Of a DNA stretch of 64,000 bases, positions 3,905 to 60,081 are shown piece after piece. Position numbers and translations under genes: made by a program. Position 1 is the stretch's first letter; every line of letters begins with the position of its first letter. The stretch is from sequence record PQ306573.1; one strand, 5' to 3'. The stretch is from Escherichia phage vB_EcoM_PTE-Eco05. Below the pieces are notes generated by a model. The model did no database searches and was not told the origin of the DNA. It was given only the letters and a program-made list of their open reading frames with translations.

Positions 3905-3934
3905 GTTTACTTCCTCCAAGGACTTTGATACTAT
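3905..3934 (+). promoter_or_regulatory. T4-type early promoter (GTTTAC, 18-nt spacer, TACTAT)
   Basis: GTTTAC at 3905-3910, TACTAT at 3929-3934; 10-bp inverted repeat TTCCTCCAAG / CTTGGAGGAA (3911-3920 / 3950-3959) pairs spacer with the denV SD. Confidence 0.5.
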
Positions 3935-3961
3935 ACATTCATCAACTACTTGGAGGAAATT

Positions 3962-4375
3962 ATGACTCGTATCAATTTAACACTTGTTTCTGAACTGACC
4001 GACCAACATCTTATGGCTGAGTATCGTGAATTACCACGCGTATTTGGTGCAGTCCGTAAACATGTTCAAAACGGTAAACGTGTAAAGGATTTTAAAATCT
4101 CTCCAACATTTATCTTAGGCGCAGGTCATGTAACATTCTTTTACGACAAACTCGAATTTTTACGTTTACGTCAAATCGAGCTAATCGCCGAATGTTTGAA
4201 ACGTGGTTTCAAAATCAAGGACACGACTGTCCAGGATATTTCCGACATCCCTGCCGAATTTCGTAATAATTATGTCCCGTCCGAAGCGTCCATTGCGATA
4301 AGTCAAGCACGCTTAGATGAAAAAATTGCTCAACGTCCGACTTGGTACAAATACTATGGTAAATCAATTTACTAA
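3962..4375 (+). CDS. denV: endonuclease V, pyrimidine-dimer DNA glycosylase
   Basis: [34 protein letters not shown]... near-identical to T4 endo V. Confidence 0.95.
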
Positions 4376-5628: not shown

Positions 5629-5741
5629 CAGTTTACTTTCTCCTAGAATTGTGATAGTATATTCATAATTACTTGGAGTGGTAAATACAGAAATGGACAA
5701 TTCATGCGCCACGGAATGGCCCAACCTAAAAGAGAAACTAA

Positions 5742-7179: not shown

Positions 7180-7435
7180 AGACATCAAAGGCTACAAGCC
7201 GCATACCGATGATAAAATCGGTAAAGTGAACGCTATTAAAGATGCCGAAGTCCGTCTTGGATTGATGTTTGATGCTCTGATTGAAGAAGCATATATCTTG
7301 AAAGAAAATGAAACAGAGCAACAAACCAAAGAAGATATGGATGCAGTGCAGGCTCTTAAGTATGCTAAGCAACATCTAAAAGAAGCCAGCATGTGGGCAT
7401 GTCGTGCGGTATTTCGACCTGAGGAAAAATACTAA
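7170..7435 (+). CDS. hypothetical small helical protein
   Basis: 88 aa from ATG 7170; the track's longer ORF starts further upstream. Confidence 0.45.
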
Positions 7436-7650
7436 TGGCTTCTACTATTACTGGGTTATTGGACTTCCAAGAAAAGGTCAACAAAATTTGTAGTGAATAC
7501 TTAAAGTATCTTGAAGAAGACCTTGAAGACTGTAAGGAAGAAGGCGAAGAAGACTATGCTGACCAGCGTCGTCGCCAAATCGAAGAGATGAGGCATTTCG
7601 CCAATATAGTATCTAAAGAATCCTGGGCTTTAACTCCATTTTATCAATAA
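7435..7650 (+). CDS. hypothetical acidic protein
   Basis: 71-aa ORF. Confidence 0.5.
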   Translation: MASTITGLLDFQEKVNKICSEYLKYLEEDLEDCKEEGEEDYADQRRRQIEEMRHFANIVSKESWALTPFYQ

Positions 7651-7654
7651 AGTA

Positions 7655-7704
7655 GTTTACTTCTCCTCTAGTTGTGTTACTATAGACCTGTCAACTAGAG
7701 GAGA
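7655..7704 (+). promoter_or_regulatory. early promoter (GTTTAC, 17 nt, TG-extended TACTAT) inside a perfect 13-bp inverted repeat that contains the regB SD
   Basis: TCTCCTCTAGTTG (7662-7674) / CAACTAGAGGAGA (7692-7704); -10 lies in the 17-nt loop. Confidence 0.6.
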
Positions 7705-7711
7705 AATCAAA

Positions 7712-8170
7712 ATGACTATCAATTCGGATGTTTTTATCCGCCGTAATAAACTCCGTCGAATCTTTGAAACGGAGTTCCGCAAAATAAATGCCGGTATAAA
7801 AGATGCTGCAAAGTCTCTTGGACTACCAGGCTTTCATATCAAGTATTCTCAACATCTCTTAGATCGTGCCATCCAGAGAGAAATAGATGAGAATTACGTT
7901 TTTGAATTATTTCATAAAGTAAAAAATCACGTTAAAGAAGTTGCAGAATTTTTATCAATGCCGGCACGTCCGGATGTTGATGAAGATTTTGTCGAAGGTG
8001 TCGAATATCGCCCAGGCCGTTTAGAAATAACTGACGGAAATCTTTGGTTAGGACTTACAGTTTGTCGCGAAAATCCGGCATTCAAAATGAAGACTCTTCA
8101 ATGTAGAATGGCTATTATTAACAGTAAACGACTACCAGGAAAAGCTTCTAAAGCAGTGATTAAAATCTAG
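7712..8170 (+). CDS. regB: RegB endoribonuclease
   Basis: MTINSDVFIRRNKLRR...HLLDRAIQREIDE...LQCRMAIINSKRLPGKASKAVIK close to T4 RegB. Confidence 0.93.
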   Translation: MTINSDVFIRRNKLRRIFETEFRKINAGIKDAAKSLGLPGFHIKYSQHLLDRAIQREIDENYVFELFHKVKNHVKEVAEFLSMPARPDVDEDFVEGVEYRPGRLEITDGNLWLGLTVCRENPAFKMKTLQCRMAIINSKRLPGKASKAVIKI

Positions 8171-9522: not shown

Positions 9523-9701
9523 AATTAACTAAAGAAGAGAAAGCTAAACTGTTCGAACTTATCCATGACCTATTGGATGAACAAGCAGCCACCAATGCGT
9601 ACGATGAATATGCTCCTTTAACAGATGAAGAATATCACGCATTGATGGAATCATTTGACAGGAAAGAACAAGAACTCATTGACTACGTGAATTCACTATA
9701 A
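9519..9701 (+). CDS. hypothetical acidic protein
   Basis: 60-aa ORF. Confidence 0.45.
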   Translation: MKLTKEEKAKLFELIHDLLDEQAATNAYDEYAPLTDEEYHALMESFDRKEQELIDYVNSL

Positions 9702-9710
9702 GGGACTCTT

Positions 9711-10292
9711 ATGGCTAGTTTAATTTTTACATATGCCGCTATGAACGCTGGTAAGTCTGCTTCATTACTTACCGCCGCACATAACTATAAAGAACGTGGC
9801 ATGGGTGTATTAGTTCTTAAACCGGCTATTGATACTCGCGATTCAAAAGGTGAAATAGTCTCTCGTATTGGTATTCGTCAGGACGCCAATATAATTACAA
9901 AAGACATGGATATCTTTGAATTCTATAAATGGGCTGCAGCACAAAAGGATATTCACTGCGTATTTGTTGACGAAGCTCAGTTCTTAACTACTGAAAAGGT
10001 GTATCAACTTAGTCGTATTGTTGACGTATACAATGTGCCGGTAATGGCATACGGACTACGAACAGATTTTAAAGGTAATCTATTTGAAGGTTCTCAAGCA
10101 TTAATGGCTATTGCCGATAAGCTTGTTGAACTTAAAGGTGTCTGTCATTGTGGTAAAAAGGCCACAATGGTAGCTAGAGTCACGGAAGACGGACTTCCAA
10201 TTACGGATGGCAGTCAAATTGAAATTGGTGATACCGATAGATATGTGTCATTATGCCGGAAGCATTGGAATGATTTGACAGGGTTGTTATAA
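9711..10292 (+). CDS. tk: thymidine kinase
   Basis: 193 aa; P-loop NAGKSASLL, VDEAQF and Zn-ribbon CHCGKKAT...LCRKH. Confidence 0.95.
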   Translation: MASLIFTYAAMNAGKSASLLTAAHNYKERGMGVLVLKPAIDTRDSKGEIVSRIGIRQDANIITKDMDIFEFYKWAAAQKDIHCVFVDEAQFLTTEKVYQLSRIVDVYNVPVMAYGLRTDFKGNLFEGSQALMAIADKLVELKGVCHCGKKATMVARVTEDGLPITDGSQIEIGDTDRYVSLCRKHWNDLTGLL

Positions 10293-11507: not shown

Positions 11508-11571
11508 ATTTAGCAGTTTACTTCTCCTCAGGTTGTGTTATAGTAGACCTTACTTACTAGAGGAGAACGTT

Positions 11572-11751
11572 ATGTCACGTAAAGAAAAAATTTCTAAGTT
11601 AATGTTTTTGATTGAAGAGTACGCTAACGCTGTATCCGATTGGGAAAATGCTCATGGTTGCGAAGATGGAGACATCGACATTAACAGAGCTATGAAAAAG
11701 ATGGCTGATACGCACACCGAATTACAAATGTATGTTAACGAGATTATGTGA
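11572..11751 (+). CDS. hypothetical protein
   Basis: ATG 11572 with GAGGAG RBS; early-promoter-like GTTTAC at 11516. Confidence 0.45.
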   Translation: MSRKEKISKLMFLIEEYANAVSDWENAHGCEDGDIDINRAMKKMADTHTELQMYVNEIM

Positions 11752-11758
11752 GGATATT

Positions 11759-11965
11759 ATGCTTTACGATTATACTGGAAAATCCGAAGATGGTGTACTT
11801 GAACTTTTACCTGAAAGCGTTGAAGATGATGATACGGTGGTGATGTTTTGTAAAAATGGTCCTGGGGATAAGGGATGGATTTATCTTCGCCAAGAAAATG
11901 ACCTAATTGTTTTGGACCCTAAACAAGTTGAAGAACTTTATCAACATTTAAAACACAATCGGTAG
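11759..11965 (+). CDS. hypothetical protein
   Basis: ATG 11759 after GAGGA; the track's longer ORF starts at 11732. Confidence 0.45.
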   Translation: MLYDYTGKSEDGVLELLPESVEDDDTVVMFCKNGPGDKGWIYLRQENDLIVLDPKQVEELYQHLKHNR

Positions 11966-12244
11966 TTTACATCTTGATAGGACTATGGTATAGTAGTCCT
12001 ACCAAAACAAATGGAGAACAAAATGAAACTTTTGCTTATCGCTTATGTTGTAGTACAATATAATTATCCGATGTTTACTTATAACATGGTAAACGGCATA
12101 GTGAATCTTATTGAAACGAGTATGGTAAAATGACCTGTGAACAAGCTAATAAATTGATGGATATTATTTAATTTTATAGAAATCAGGTTGATGCGTGCCA
12201 GAATGCTTTGGTGAATTTTGTTGAAACTTTAATTGGTGAATAAT

Positions 12245-12778
12245 ATGAAAACTGTAATTGAAACAACCGAGTTGTTTGGTGATTTATGTATCGAAAAACG
12301 TGGTTATGTGTATGTTCTGACACAAGAAGATGATGCTGCTACTATTCTTCCTATGGAACTGGATAAGATTTTAAAACTCAATCCGTCTGGACGTCGTCGA
12401 GAGGTAATTAACATTGGTGAAGACCTCCAAGTTCGTTTTTATCCTGGTCTTTACAACGCGGCCAATATCGAAACTGAAGACGAATGTTTTTCTATTAATA
12501 ATTGGAAAACATTCGTCACTAAGGTGAAAGAATTAATGGAATCTGAAACAGCCAAAAAGGCCAAACTTCAATGGGCTAAATGCCGTAATGCTTTTATTAC
12601 AAATCAGGACCGCCCTGACTATACAACAGTCCTGGGAGTTAATCCTTCTTATGAAGACGGTGATGTCGTAGTTATTCGCCAAATTGATGACCTTCGTCAA
12701 CATATCATTACATTAGACAAAGATGAAGCAGTTGCTCTTAAAGCTTATCTCGATTCTATTATCCCAACTTTGAAATAA
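12245..12778 (+). CDS. hypothetical protein
   Basis: in-frame ATG 12245; track ORF begins at a TTG at 12233. Confidence 0.55.
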   Translation: MKTVIETTELFGDLCIEKRGYVYVLTQEDDAATILPMELDKILKLNPSGRRREVINIGEDLQVRFYPGLYNAANIETEDECFSINNWKTFVTKVKELMESETAKKAKLQWAKCRNAFITNQDRPDYTTVLGVNPSYEDGDVVVIRQIDDLRQHIITLDKDEAVALKAYLDSIIPTLK

Positions 12779-16051: not shown

Positions 16052-16080
16052 GTTTACAAGGTCTATGGTTATGTTATTAT
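16052..16080 (+). promoter_or_regulatory. early promoter (GTTTAC, 17 nt, TG-extended TATTAT)
   Basis: flanked by inverted copies AGGTCTAT / ATAGACCT. Confidence 0.5.
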
Positions 16081-16107
16081 AGACCTATCAACTACTGGAG
16101 GTAAAAC

Positions 16108-16635
16108 ATGAACGCTAAAGATATTTTCAACCTGGTAAATTATAACGACGGTAAATTTAAATCTGAAGCACAAAGCAAGTTCTTTAATGACATTGCTTAT
16201 GGTAACGAGATTACCGTGGACGGAGGTCAGATTTTCAAATCTCGCTGGAATTGGATTGTTATCATCGATTCAGTTGGAATTGTGGAAGTCTACAAAAACA
16301 CTAACAAAAAACGTACATTATTCTGGTCTCGTGAAACTAACGAGCAGTACAAAAAGGATAAAGCATCTCGTTTATCCAAAGTAACCCAGGAAGATATCGA
16401 GTTTATCAAGAAAGATATCGAGATGTACGAAAATTTAATCGCTGAAGACCAGGCAGTACTCGATAAGTTTGATGAAATTAAAGCTTCTCGTGAAATCCCT
16501 GACTTCATGAAAGAAGCAGTAAACGAACGATACGCTCTCACTTCAGAACGTATTGCAAACTATACAAAACAGAAAGCAGAACGTATTAGTACTCTTCGGA
16601 AATTTGAAGAACGTTTAAAGACGGTTCACGCATAA
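16108..16635 (+). CDS. hypothetical protein
   Basis: 175-aa ORF. Confidence 0.55.
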   Translation: MNAKDIFNLVNYNDGKFKSEAQSKFFNDIAYGNEITVDGGQIFKSRWNWIVIIDSVGIVEVYKNTNKKRTLFWSRETNEQYKKDKASRLSKVTQEDIEFIKKDIEMYENLIAEDQAVLDKFDEIKASREIPDFMKEAVNERYALTSERIANYTKQKAERISTLRKFEERLKTVHA

Positions 16636-17750: not shown

Positions 17751-18701
17751 ATGACACGTTCACATTACATTGAATACTTTGCCGGTCTTATCGCTAACGT
17801 TCATGCTCAGCGCGCTTCTGGTGCACTAGGATTTGATGTTCCACACCGAGATGTAGTAAGTGGTATTCTTCGCGATTTTGGTACATACACAGGCCAAGAA
17901 AATCATATCTGTAAAGATACTCAAAATGCATATTCTCATTCATTAGGGACACTGCTTCAATGGTTCAAACGTTCTCGTTTATTATCTTCTACTGTAGCTC
18001 GTGATAACATCAAAAACTTTATGAAGCCGAGCTTTATTAAATCTGTGACATCTAAAACCGATTTGGTTGAATTCACTATTGTTAATGATGTTAAAAAGAC
18101 TCATTTGGCTGATTGGTTATCTACCATTCCTGAAACTAAATTTGCTGATAAATTTGCTTGTGAATTCAATAACCAAGTGAATATGCTTTTTAAACATTCT
18201 CGTAAATTATTCACAGGTGGCGATGGTCGTACAAATAAAGTTCATGTTAAAGATTGGGTTACTGCAGTATTCAAACCAACTGGTAATGGTAACGCATCAT
18301 TGTCAATTGATATCCAGGTTCCTTATTACTACTCACGTAATCTCGGTACCATGAAAGCTGAAGAAATTAATAAGCATAACAAAACCGTTCGTTCGTTGTC
18401 TTATAAACTTATTACATTGTTAGAGACTATGGATGTTGTTGAAACGTTCGACGAATCCGAAGATAACGGTTCAATGTTATACAGTTCTCGTACCCGAATT
18501 AAGCTGAAGTCCCCTAACGAGTATAAGCCTAAGCCTATTAAAGAGCCTAAAGCAGAAAAAGTTGATAACTTAAGAGAAGAACGCGAATATCTCAAATCTC
18601 GTCTGAAAGAAGTCGAAGCCCAGATTGCAGAACAAACTAAATCGTTAAAAGCTCTGAATGCGAAAGCGGATGGTTTACGAAATGCCATTGAGGTTTTATA
18701 A
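17751..18701 (+). CDS. hypothetical protein with C-terminal coiled coil
   Basis: 316-aa ORF. Confidence 0.55.
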   Translation: MTRSHYIEYFAGLIANVHAQRASGALGFDVPHRDVVSGILRDFGTYTGQENHICKDTQNAYSHSLGTLLQWFKRSRLLSSTVARDNIKNFMKPSFIKSVTSKTDLVEFTIVNDVKKTHLADWLSTIPETKFADKFACEFNNQVNMLFKHSRKLFTGGDGRTNKVHVKDWVTAVFKPTGNGNASLSIDIQVPYYYSRNLGTMKAEEINKHNKTVRSLSYKLITLLETMDVVETFDESEDNGSMLYSSRTRIKLKSPNEYKPKPIKEPKAEKVDNLREEREYLKSRLKEVEAQIAEQTKSLKALNAKADGLRNAIEVL

Positions 18702-24580: not shown

Positions 24581-24724
24581 ATCTCATTTCTAATATAATC
24601 CATTGGAATCTTCACTTCACTATCTCCTTGGGCCCCTCTCAAATAAAAAATATTTTCATAAAACAGTTTTACATCCTCAATAGATGTGTTAAGATTAACA
24701 CCATCTACCGCAGAGGAAAACAAA

Positions 24725-24973
24725 ATGATTAGTCTGAATTCGAAGAAAGTTGTTCTATCTCTTAATGTAAATAACGAACGTCCGATATTCATTACCATTT
24801 CCGATTTGAACGTTGAAATTGCTAATGGCATCCGTACTTATCAAACGTCTAAAACACATTGGGACTATATCCCGATGTTGACGCTTACTCAGCGTTTAGA
24901 AGCAATTGGCCTTAAAGACCTTTCAGTAAGTGAAGTGAATTTTATCAAACGCGTTGTATCAATCAACCTCTGA
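24725..24973 (+). CDS. hypothetical protein
   Basis: 82 aa from ATG 24725. Confidence 0.4.
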   Translation: MISLNSKKVVLSLNVNNERPIFITISDLNVEIANGIRTYQTSKTHWDYIPMLTLTQRLEAIGLKDLSVSEVNFIKRVVSINL

Positions 24974-25613: not shown

Positions 25614-25682
25614 CGATTTACAAACTCTTGAGAGCAGAGTATAATGCTCTCATTGGATAATAAAATAACCGAGGAAAATAAT

Positions 25683-26015
25683 ATGTCTACTAAAATCAAA
25701 AACGTAGTTAATTCTTTCGCTTTCGATAAAGTTGTTGCTCTTCTGGAATCCGGCAATATTGTTACTCCTCAAGTTCTTGACGCATGGGAATTCCGTCTTT
25801 ATGAAATCATGCAAAAACACGACCAGAAAATTGGACGTAATTCTATTCGCGAAATTCTAGTACAATATATTCTTTCTGAATTTGACGTTGCTGCATTTGG
25901 TGTTGAATCTAAAGCTTATCAGAAACATGAAATCTCTGAAAAGACTATCCGTCGTATGAAAAATCAGCGTAAGAAAAAATTCGTTGACCTGAAAATTGTT
26001 AAGGCGGCAAAATGA
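25683..26015 (+). CDS. hypothetical protein
   Basis: ATG 25683 after GAGGA. Confidence 0.5.
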   Translation: MSTKIKNVVNSFAFDKVVALLESGNIVTPQVLDAWEFRLYEIMQKHDQKIGRNSIREILVQYILSEFDVAAFGVESKAYQKHEISEKTIRRMKNQRKKKFVDLKIVKAAK

Positions 26016-46966: not shown

Positions 46967-47028
46967 GGGGTTTACATCTTCCTCTAGGCATGATATGATG
47001 TACTTACACCAACCAAGAGGAAAACATT

Positions 47029-47403
47029 ATGAATATGTCTCAAGCAATTTTTACTGCAATCACCGAAAACACAACTGTTGAAGTAGTTTCTCCGCTGGCA
47101 ACCTACGTTATTCTTGCTCCTAAAACTATTGTATCTCGTATGGAAAACATGGGCAAACGTATCGTACAAATTGTTGGAGCCGGAAATCAAAAACTTGATT
47201 ATCTGCGAACCATCAAAGCTTATGAACATTTCCAGCTCGAAAAAGGTTCTCCTATCCAGGTAGAACTCGTAAATGGTGATATCGTTCGAGCAATGTTCCA
47301 TCATTTCTATGCATTGAATGACCCATCTAAAGCGGTTCGTTTGATTGCATATGACGCAAACCAAAACGAAATCAACGCAGATATATCTAAATTACGTTTT
47401 TAA
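47029..47403 (+). CDS. hypothetical protein
   Basis: 124-aa ORF. Confidence 0.5.
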   Translation: MNMSQAIFTAITENTTVEVVSPLATYVILAPKTIVSRMENMGKRIVQIVGAGNQKLDYLRTIKAYEHFQLEKGSPIQVELVNGDIVRAMFHHFYALNDPSKAVRLIAYDANQNEINADISKLRF

Positions 47404-47453
47404 GTTTACTTCTCCAGTAGTTGTGTTATTATAGACCTATCAACTACTGGAGA
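47404..47453 (+). promoter_or_regulatory. early promoter (GTTTAC, 17 nt, TG-extended TATTAT) inside a perfect 13-bp inverted repeat containing the downstream SD
   Basis: TCTCCAGTAGTTG (47411-47423) / CAACTACTGGAGA (47441-47453). Confidence 0.6.
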
Positions 47454-47458
47454 ACAAA

Positions 47459-47776
47459 ATGAAAACCATCGATTGTAAAGCAGAATTTAAGATTTTTTAT
47501 CACGGTTCAAGTAGTTCAGCTAACATCGAAAACATGCTTTGTCCTCCTGAAGAAACAGGAGTTCTGTCTGAAACTGGACGTAAGAAAAACTTGGATCGTG
47601 TATTCTTTACTGAAGATATCGGTTTAGCAAAGATTTATGCAGGACGAGCAGCACGCTCTTATGGAGGTGAACCACGTCTCTATCGAGTAATTTCTCCGGT
47701 AGATGTAGTTCAAATGAATGATACTAAAGGTGCTACAGTTTATCACGCTGAATGGGCATTTTGCGAGGAAATATGA
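47459..47776 (+). CDS. hypothetical protein
   Basis: 105-aa ORF. Confidence 0.5.
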   Translation: MKTIDCKAEFKIFYHGSSSSANIENMLCPPEETGVLSETGRKKNLDRVFFTEDIGLAKIYAGRAARSYGGEPRLYRVISPVDVVQMNDTKGATVYHAEWAFCEEI

Positions 47777-48711: not shown

Positions 48712-48774
48712 ACTTGTTTACATTATAGATGGACTATAGTATAGTAGTCCTATCAAATCAACTAAGGAGTTAAA

Positions 48775-49068
48775 ATGAAAAAGTTATCATTGGCAGCAAT
48801 CTTACTTGCAGTATCATGTGCACCGGCTCCAGTTACGGCAGGTTATGATAAAGACCTCTGTGAGTGGTCAATGACTGCAAATCAAGAAGATGTTGAACAA
48901 CAAATCTTCTCTGATATCATGAACATCACTAAACGAGACCGTCCTAATATGGTTAATAAAGTTGTTGAACAACTTAAGTCTGGCGGTATCATGCAGTACA
49001 ACTATGTTTTGTATTGTGACCCTAATTTCGATAACAAAGATATCGTAACCGAAATCACAGGTGAATAA
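48775..49068 (+). CDS. periplasmic small protein, Spackle-like (by size and position)
   Basis: 97 aa with signal peptide MKKLSLAAILLAVSCAPA; T4 sp is in the 41-61 interval. Confidence 0.4.
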   Translation: MKKLSLAAILLAVSCAPAPVTAGYDKDLCEWSMTANQEDVEQQIFSDIMNITKRDRPNMVNKVVEQLKSGGIMQYNYVLYCDPNFDNKDIVTEITGE

Positions 49069-59554: not shown

Positions 59555-59613
59555 AGTTGTTTACTTCTCCTCCGGTTTTGATATTATAACCATATCAACC
59601 AGAGGAGAATAAT

Positions 59614-60081
59614 ATGTTAGTTTACCGCGTAGAACGTAGTTTTTGTACTCAACGTGAATCATTACCAGGAATTGCTATCGAAGATGGTAAAGCCGTCAGA
59701 ATTTGGGAAACCTCTTGGAATAAAGAACCTCGTTCGCCATACGGTTGGTCGGGCACCGACAACTCTGAAGAAACATGGGAGTTCCTTGATAAGCATGGAA
59801 TACTCTCAGGTAACTTCTACCATCACGGCGACAACTATAATGTCCCTAATCGTCCTACAGTAAATGAAGACAAACTCCTTGAACAAAATATCTTAAGATA
59901 CTATAGAATTGAGCACACATTTGAATTGAGTGAAGATTGGGCTCAAGGGTTCTATTTTGGATTTGAAAGTGTTGACGCGGTTTATGCATGGTTTGATGAC
60001 CAGGTGGATGTTGAACTCTTGAAAGCTAAAGGATACTACATCGCGGTCTATGAAGCACCTGATTTCATCCTCGGAAGTTGA
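59614..60081 (+). CDS. hypothetical protein
   Basis: 155-aa ORF; early promoter/hairpin at 59558-59609. Confidence 0.5.
   Translation: MLVYRVERSFCTQRESLPGIAIEDGKAVRIWETSWNKEPRSPYGWSGTDNSEETWEFLDKHGILSGNFYHHGDNYNVPNRPTVNEDKLLEQNILRYYRIEHTFELSEDWAQGFYFGFESVDAVYAWFDDQVDVELLKAKGYYIAVYEAPDFILGS

Follow-up and report, generated by a model that had tools for sequence, protein, structure and literature searches.

Early Promoters Embedded in Shine-Dalgarno-Containing Hairpins of a T4-like Phage: Candidate Transcript-Origin Switches for Translation

Upstream of the regB gene of Escherichia phage vB_EcoM_PTE-Eco05 (PQ306573.1), an early promoter is enclosed in a long inverted repeat, the 3′ arm of which contains the Shine-Dalgarno (SD) sequence of the gene. 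This arrangement raises the question of whether the translation of regB, and of other early genes that are organized in the same manner, depends on the promoter from which the transcript originates. The window, that is, the whole stretch of 64,000 nucleotides that was analyzed, belongs to an RB69-like Mosigvirus (Tevenvirinae), a T4-like phage; the surroundings of regB are 99.8% identical to those in Escherichia phage AV109 and 98.8% identical to those in the Mosigvirus vB_EcoM_SA79RD. Along the + strand, which also carries the modules described below, the early genes e, denV, ipII, vs.x, regB, vs.1, vs and tk follow one another.

Promoters inside inverted repeats at regB and elsewhere in the window

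Upstream of regB lies a T4-type early promoter with GTTTAC as its −35 hexamer (7655–7660), which starts 4 nt past the point where the preceding ORF on the + strand (7435–7650) stops. The 17-nt promoter spacer encompasses the 5′ arm of the repeat, TTCTCCTCTAGTTG (7661–7674), which consists of an anti-SD core and a distal stem; the TGT (TGn) motif and the −10 element TACTAT (7675–7683) are located in the hairpin loop; and the 3′ arm, CAACTAGAGGAGAA (7692–7705), includes the SD GGAG (7700–7703), followed by the ATG at 7712. The two arms form a perfect 14-bp helix with a 17-nt loop. A near-identical module, 40 kb away, precedes a gene of the phrog_2110 family that starts with the ATG at 47459. Here, the −35 hexamer GTTTAC (47404–47409) directly adjoins the stop of the upstream ORF (gap 0) and is followed by the 5′ arm TTCTCCAGTAGTTG (47410–47423), the TGn motif with the −10 element TATTAT (47424–47432), and the 3′ arm CAACTACTGGAGAA (47441–47454) with its GGAG at 47449–47452. 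This helix is also perfect and 14 bp long, so that the perfect 13-bp repeats described at both loci in a preceding sequence-only reading are real but one base pair longer than stated. The stems of the two modules differ at two pairs, both compensated (TC..GA vs. AG..CT), with zero uncompensated changes.

Additional copies were reported in the same reading at denV, 11516 and 59559, and all of these exist, although they are not of equal quality. The denV module (3905–3958) consists of GTTTAC (3905–3910), the arms TTCCTCCAAG (3911–3920) and CTTGGAGGAA (3949–3958), which form a 10-bp helix, and the −10 element TACTAT (3929–3934), with the ATG at 3962. The module upstream of a motB.2-like gene with the ATG at 59614 (59559–59609) contains GTTTAC (59559–59564) and the arms TTCTCCTCCGGTT (59565–59577) and AACCAGAGGAGAA (59597–59609), which pair at 12 of 13 positions with one C·A mismatch; in close relatives, the corresponding helix is a perfect 13 bp. 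The sole mismatch of this stem involves window position 59572, which is C in the window and T in three related contigs. By contrast with these good copies, the one at 11516–11567 is weak, with GTTTAC at 11516–11521, the 8-bp arms TTCTCCTC (11522–11529) and GAGGAGAA (11560–11567), the ATG at 11572, and an intrinsic terminator directly upstream. The basic anatomy proposed previously, namely a 5′ arm in the spacer after GTTTAC, a −10 element within the loop, and a 3′ arm that contains the SD, is seen at all five sites. Another weak copy (46970–47022) combines GTTTAC (46970–46975) with the 7-bp repeat TTCCTCT (46979–46985)/AGAGGAA (47016–47022) ahead of the ATG at 47029, and its SD is not predicted to be closed (0.57).

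A second class of stems associated with early promoters spans the −10 element only and leaves the SD untouched, e.g., TAGGACTA/TAGTCCTA and AGGTCTAT/ATAGACCT. Such stems are located at 878–937, 11965–12023, 16052–16108, 48716–48775, 25616–25683 and 24667–24725 of the window and resemble the "AGNA-loop-TCNT" PeSL stems reported for PST/T4; at 16052 (nrdC.8) and 24667, an extra outer helix extends to the SD.

The long repeats of the window are far in excess of the chance expectation. When perfect hairpins with loops of 3–45 nt were counted in the window and in 100 dinucleotide shuffles of it, 2 hairpins of at least 14 bp were observed vs. 0.02 expected, 3 of at least 13 bp vs. 0.07, and 9 of at least 10 bp vs. 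3.85. Another hairpin of the window, at 1992–2020, has a perfect 13-bp stem around a loop of 3 nt (AGTAGGATGGACA gga TGTCCATCCTACT); it is without a T tail and apparently within coding sequence; other perfect hairpins of at least 12 bp lie near 12497 and 22766. A search of the whole window against Rfam at the gathering score returned no matches.

For the 60-nt modules, the predicted folding energies lie between −17.8 and −21.7 kcal/mol, and the z-scores for regB, 47404, denV and 59559 between −4.9 and −5.9, whereas the fold of the 11516 copy is indistinguishable from shuffles (z = −0.85). We infer the positions of the start sites from promoter geometry: the 5′ arm ends 8–9 nt before the end of the −10 element, and the predicted +1, which at regB falls at about 7690, precedes the 3′ arm by 2 nt, i.e., lies between the arms. 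RNA that starts at the predicted +1 is unstructured (z of +0.65 and +0.87). The comparison of read-through and promoter-proximal RNAs that the sequence-only reading had suggested as a check came out as anticipated: across denV, regB, 47459, 11572 and 59614, the predicted probability that the SD is unpaired is 0.00–0.23 in read-through RNA, i.e., closed, vs. 0.50–0.77 in local RNA, i.e., open. The same folding method yields −15.1 kcal/mol for T4 e, −19.5 for T4 49, −23.1 for T4 regB and −25.6 for nrdC.8. The e and 49 hairpins have been experimentally validated, with approximately 100-fold repression reported for e; given that the hairpins of T4 regB and nrdC.8 are predicted to be at least as stable as these, a physical effect on translation initiation is very likely, if read-through RNA exists.

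The GTTTAC-type promoters are not called in a generic sigma-70 scan of the window, so the evidence for their identity is the T4 early consensus together with homology to the promoter of T4 regB, for which early promoter use is already known.

Covariation and the extent of the class

Orthologues of regB and denV in other T4-like phages display at least eight distinct distal helices that are built on a common CTCC/GGAG core. Among the regB loci from IMG/VR, the hairpin is retained while the identity of the encoded RegB declines from 97% to 55% and the distal sequence varies, with stems such as TCTAGTTG/CAACTAGA, TCTTGACTG/CAGTTAAGA, TCTTTATG/CATAAAGA and TGTAAG/CTTACA, as well as a split stem with the inner part GGGCCAT/ATGGCCC; in the most distant locus (40% identity), the stem is absent, and an intrinsic terminator is located directly upstream. 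The denV loci have at least seven pairing solutions, and a second architecture was detected in which the 5′ arm covers the −10 element and the discriminator rather than the spacer, e.g., GATGTCTTCC/GGAGGACATC. Whichever architecture is used, the SD invariably forms the 3′ arm, with the 5′ arm always located upstream of the expected start. The window contains exactly four exact copies of GTTTACTTCTCC. The arrangement is nevertheless restricted neither to this phage nor to the exact GTTTAC-TTCTCC word noted previously: T4 has it with different sequences, and in some lineages the −10 element and discriminator are covered by the 5′ arm instead.

Across distinct haplotypes, the helix score of cognate arms exceeds that of swapped arms both for regB (11.2 vs. 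7.5, p < 5e-5; 9 distinct stems) and for denV (8.1 vs. 5.2, p < 5e-5; 21 distinct stems). Covariation was further assessed in an alignment of 42 distinct modules that was anchored on [CT]TCC and GGAG only, leaving the distal stem free. In this alignment, 68% of the cells are paired, vs. 58.9% after shuffling (0 of 500 shuffles as high) and 42–51% in slid registers; the covariation score is 0.264, vs. 0.141 (0 of 500) and 0.086–0.131, respectively; and 86 cells are changed on both sides, vs. 49 and 31–36. A strand test based on the interruptions of the stems was abandoned because G·U and A·C pairs are tied at 6:6, which is uninformative; given this tie and the equally good folding of the antisense strand of the perfect stems, selection at the level of the sense-strand RNA is not proven.

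Part of the covariation between lineages could reflect recombinational swapping of whole self-complementary cassettes rather than stepwise compensation. Two regB loci (L009 and L010, positions ~1390–1500) share the 3′ half of the promoter and the SD arm but differ in the gene that precedes them, and two mismatches (..CTGGATG) are present in the 5′ arm of L010; judging from the sequences, this difference looks like recombination or conversion within the promoter cassette. In the T4-type orthologues of the 47459 locus (L101–L106, ~500–600), the spacer is a T4 denV-type cassette (ATCTCCTGTAGG...), with a mismatched 3′ arm such that only TCTCC/GGAGA pairs, and an intrinsic terminator lies directly upstream. 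At the denV loci of 345–378 kb phages (L041 and L047–L049, ~520–600), a TTGAC(T)-N17-TATAAT promoter is located within a terminator hairpin (GGGTTGACTTCGGTCAGCCCTTTTT), a terminator-promoter composite in which SD pairing is absent.

With respect to the generality of the arrangement, we scanned the + strand of the window and T4 (in three pieces, L152, L018 and L153) for units of the form GTTTAC (at most 1 mismatch)-N16–18-TAnnnT followed by an SD and an ORF, and obtained 24 and 36 units, respectively. The longest helix between the spacer and the 5′ UTR is greater in cognate than in swapped pairs, a control that preserves shared motifs, both in the window (p = 0.00125, or 0.00075 if the 3′ arm must reach the SD) and in T4 (p = 0.0002, or <5e-5 under the same requirement). 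When predicted SD masking is averaged over all units, it is not cognate-specific: SD openness with the cognate vs. a swapped upstream part is 0.409 vs. 0.401 over the 24 window units (p = 0.6) and 0.359 vs. 0.403 over the T4 units (p = 0.04). Promoters bearing TTCTCC mask any GGAGAA, cognate or not, and longer RNA is generally more paired. Average thermodynamic specificity was discarded as a criterion, chimeric read-through RNAs masking the SD on average as well as cognate ones do, with the effect limited to a subset. The cognate upstream part ranks among the best 10% of upstream parts in 13 of the 60 units, vs. 6 expected, including regB, 47459, denV and 11572 of the window. Hence cognate-specific masking, as modeled here, distinguishes a class comprising approximately one in five early promoter units and is not a property of early promoters in general. 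The proposal of a recurrent module of early genes built on GTTTAC-TTCTCC accordingly needs to be narrowed: the module does recur and is conserved with compensatory changes, but only about 20% of the units are cognate-specific.

In T4, the members of this class include, by stem length, regB (15 bp, with two G·U pairs), ndd.4 (14), alc and alt.-3 (13), and nrdC.8 (12), followed by denV (10), e.8 and 30.8 (9), and imm.1, motB.2 and mrh.2 (8). Over both genomes, 8 of 9 stems of at least 10 bp are located within 7 nt of an upstream stop codon, vs. 18 of 40 weak units (p = 0.019, with the threshold chosen post hoc). A mutual exclusion of hairpins and upstream terminators was considered and rejected, given that stems of at least 8 bp accompany 3 of 10 units with an upstream terminator and 13 of 50 without one (p = 1.0); anecdotally, an upstream terminator is absent at all nine stems of at least 10 bp.

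Relation to late-promoter hairpins and PeSL cassettes

The underlying principle is known, as the sequence-only reading pointed out for T4 e and 49; soc and I-TevI are further examples, all of them on late promoters. As in the modules described here, the hairpins of these four genes bury the SD (and, in some cases, the AUG) in long transcripts, and the promoter lies between or within the arms, so that the proximal RNA lacks the 5′ arm and is translated. The difference lies in the promoter and in the direction of the control. The four T4 genes employ a late promoter (TATAAATA, recognized by gp55) and delay expression from the early to the late period, whereas the modules contain no promoter of this late type but a sigma-70-type early promoter, GTTTAC-N17-TGn-TAnnnT, such that a gene under this switch would be expressed only in the immediate-early window and only from its own promoter. 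By analogy, the module would be the same device equipped with an early promoter and with the logic reversed: instead of withholding expression until the late period, it would permit expression from the gene's own early promoter only. An early-promoter version is not listed in the 2010 review of T4 post-transcriptional control, and the accessible reviews give late-promoter cases only; an earlier explicit description is possible.

Anatomically, the modules are PeSL-like cassettes of T-even phages. PeSL cassettes, described in RB49/phi1, PST/T4 and nt-1/KVP40, are intergenic elements of ~55 bp that consist of an AT-rich region, an early promoter, a stem-loop, and an SD with ATG; they are repeated across the genome, and the stem is located between the −35 and −10 elements or spans the latter. 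Likewise, the modules combine an early promoter, a stem-loop and the SD/ATG in a short intergenic element and occur in repeated conserved copies (the four copies of GTTTACTTCTCC), with downstream genes that are mostly without known function. The PeSL papers, however, assign the stems a role in termination or attenuation and in recombination, and neither translation nor ribosomes are ever mentioned in them; moreover, the PST/T4 PeSL stems are placed upstream of the promoter or given as AGNA-loop-TCNT, whereas in the modules the 3′ arm is the SD and covaries with the spacer. What seems to be new here, as far as the sequences indicate, is the location of early rather than late promoters inside SD-masking hairpins, with both the principle and the PeSL cassette already known.

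Some of these hairpins have presumably been noticed before. In their 1986 sequence of the 58.3–65.5 kb region of T4, Valerie et al. reportedly noted stem-loops before ipIII, ipII, denV and orf61.9, which, together with those of Repoila 1994, are probably the hairpins at T4 denV and regB. To our knowledge, neither work proposed translational control by the promoter of origin. The IP-locus elements of Repoila et al. (1994) are commented on in Arbiol (2010).

A predicted dependence of translation on transcript origin and its alternatives

Read-through RNA is to be expected at these modules because the promoter of each strong module starts 0–4 nt past the stop of the preceding + strand ORF, with no terminator in between. 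Between the early promoter at 5631 and regB, the ORFs are packed, and terminator-like sites occur at chance level, none of them convincing. A MotA-type middle promoter (GCTT-N11–13-TAnnnT) was considered as a source of read-through into regB and rejected, the pattern being absent between 5631 and 7655.

We consider it fairly probable, within the folding model adopted here, that the modules are switches that make translation dependent on transcript origin. Under this model, the promoter spacer would encode an anti-SD sequence (TTCTCC or TTCCTC) followed by 4–9 more bases, and their pairing partners would be the SD, ~30 nt downstream, and the bases at the very start of the transcript. RNA arriving from upstream would contain both arms and immediately fold into a hairpin that buries GGAG and precludes initiation by ribosomes, whereas RNA from the module's own promoter would start between the arms, lack the 5′ arm and expose the SD. 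With the SD masked in read-through RNA and open in local RNA, RegB, DenV and the other products would be made solely from their own immediate-early promoters, and their synthesis would end when the promoter is shut off, despite continuing read-through.

The nuclease RegB adds another dimension to this model. This enzyme cleaves early SDs at GGAG, and secondary structure prevents the cleavage; the hairpin should therefore also shield read-through RNA from RegB, which would be unable to cleave the buried GGAG. The output of regB itself must be tightly limited, according to a review, which lists promoter shut-off at 2–3 min and cleavage by RegB of its own SD as the controls. This autoregulation acts on the same GGAG that the hairpin would mask, and the review gives no hairpin layer; the regB hairpin would thus represent a third layer of control beside promoter shut-off and self-cleavage.

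Several other readings of the same elements have to be weighed. The one suggested by the PeSL literature, that the stem-loop is a terminator or attenuator of upstream transcription and the cassette mainly a recombination substrate for gene shuffling, with SD pairing secondary, is in our estimate unlikely, but it has substantial points in its favor: PeSL-like elements, defined as cassettes of early promoter, stem-loop and SD/ATG, are reported in T-even phages, one RB49 stem-loop has been found to lower lacZ expression like a strong terminator, and shuffling of cassettes is apparent in two anecdotal cases (the L009/L010 pair and the T4-type 47459 orthologues with their denV-type spacer) and in the near-identity of the 7655 and 47404 modules despite their separation. 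Furthermore, the GenBank record of a relative, OL960576, automatically annotates the regB hairpin as a rho-independent terminator. In this record (L017), the promoter hairpins at 7640–7690, 9665–9713 and 18214–18251 carry that label (WebGeSTer), although they have no U-tract. Contrary to this annotation, an intrinsic terminator at regB was rejected, given the 17-nt loop, the 3′ flank AAUCAAAAUG without a U-tract and the negative terminator scan; the sequence 3′ of the 3′ arm is GGAGAAAUCAAAAUG. Neither a terminator nor a recombination site would require the SD to be the 3′ arm in every lineage and in both architectures. The covariation of the distal stems also speaks against this reading. Conceivably, a gene that is not translated could cause Rho-dependent polarity, in which case attenuation may itself follow from SD masking. 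That the element instead lacks any function in RNA, the pyrimidine-rich spacer happening to complement a GGAG(A) SD or the inverted repeat acting at the DNA level, would be compatible with the pairing of the TTCTCC/GGAGAA core across non-cognate promoters, with average masking that is not cognate-specific and with the tied G·U:A·C count. We regard this reading as improbable, given that the 4–9 bp distal to the core covary in register, that 14-bp stems are far above chance, that cognate arms significantly outperform swapped ones in both genomes and both orthologue sets, and that the G·U pairs of T4 regB would be mismatches in DNA.

Two further alternatives accept that the hairpin forms in RNA but assign it a different role. 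In one of these, the selected function is the protection of GGAG from RegB/S1 in long polycistronic RNA, such that downstream cistrons are kept intact, with the loss of translation as a side effect. The 16 RegB-resistant T4 RNAs in which GGAG is located in stable structures, known from the literature, are in line with such protection, and so is the form of the module SDs, namely GGAG followed by an A-rich tract. Compared with the RegB/S1 cleavage-site consensus, an unpaired GGAGRAYARAA, the 47459 SD GGAGAACAAAA (47449–47459) fits, and the 59614 SD GGAGAATAATA (59604–59614) matches at 10 of 11 positions. Against it, the denV gene of T4 has the hairpin even though its SD is a poor RegB site, owing to the 3′ sequence, and the window regB SD GGAGAAATCAA also matches the consensus poorly. 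On sequence alone, such a shield is inseparable from translational masking; as the primary function, we deem it rather unlikely, more so than the terminator account. The regB SD of the window (7700–7710) has a C at position 9 of the consensus; according to the review, the regB SD is cleaved by RegB in every phage tested. The other alternative is translational coupling, whereby a ribosome that ends at the upstream stop, 0–4 nt before the −35 hexamer, opens the hairpin at its base and thereby exposes the SD, so that read-through RNA is translated only if the upstream gene is. The enrichment of strong stems beside upstream stop codons (the 8 of 9 vs. 18 of 40 given above) and the pairing of the SD with the 5′-most bases of the 5′ arm, at the end closest to the stop codon, are points in favor of coupling. 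The 5′ arm, however, begins 7–11 nt past the stop codon, and, from the general dimensions of the ribosome footprint, a terminating ribosome would reach at most 0–4 of the 14 pairs, and none at regB, which makes coupling the least probable of these readings, and highly improbable in our view.

Returning to translational control by transcript origin, we tentatively suggest a wider form of it, with considerably less confidence than for the modules themselves: in T-even phages, roughly one in five early genes, with T4 regB, denV, alc, ndd.4, nrdC.8 and alt.-3 among them, might possess a conserved "own-promoter-only" switch, with a GGAG that is open, translatable and cleavable by RegB in local RNA, and closed, silent and RegB-resistant in read-through RNA. 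If so, an overlooked layer of the distinction between immediate-early and delayed-early expression would come to light, in which, for a defined subset of early genes, transcript origin decides both translation and inactivation by RegB, and the escape of GGAG sites from RegB in longer, later transcripts would be partly explained. A cis-acting rule would thereby be added to the best-studied phage gene-expression program, the automatic "terminator" annotations in many T4-like genomes would need correction, and part of the conserved PeSL-type cassettes would have a functional reason beyond recombination.

In a few units, the prediction is the reverse. At the window ATGs 12023, 25683, 48463 and 48775, and at T4 sp, rIIA.1 and trna.4, almost every swapped upstream part leaves the SD less open, by prediction, than the cognate one does, and these units may constitute an opposite class in which the SD is kept open in read-through RNA.
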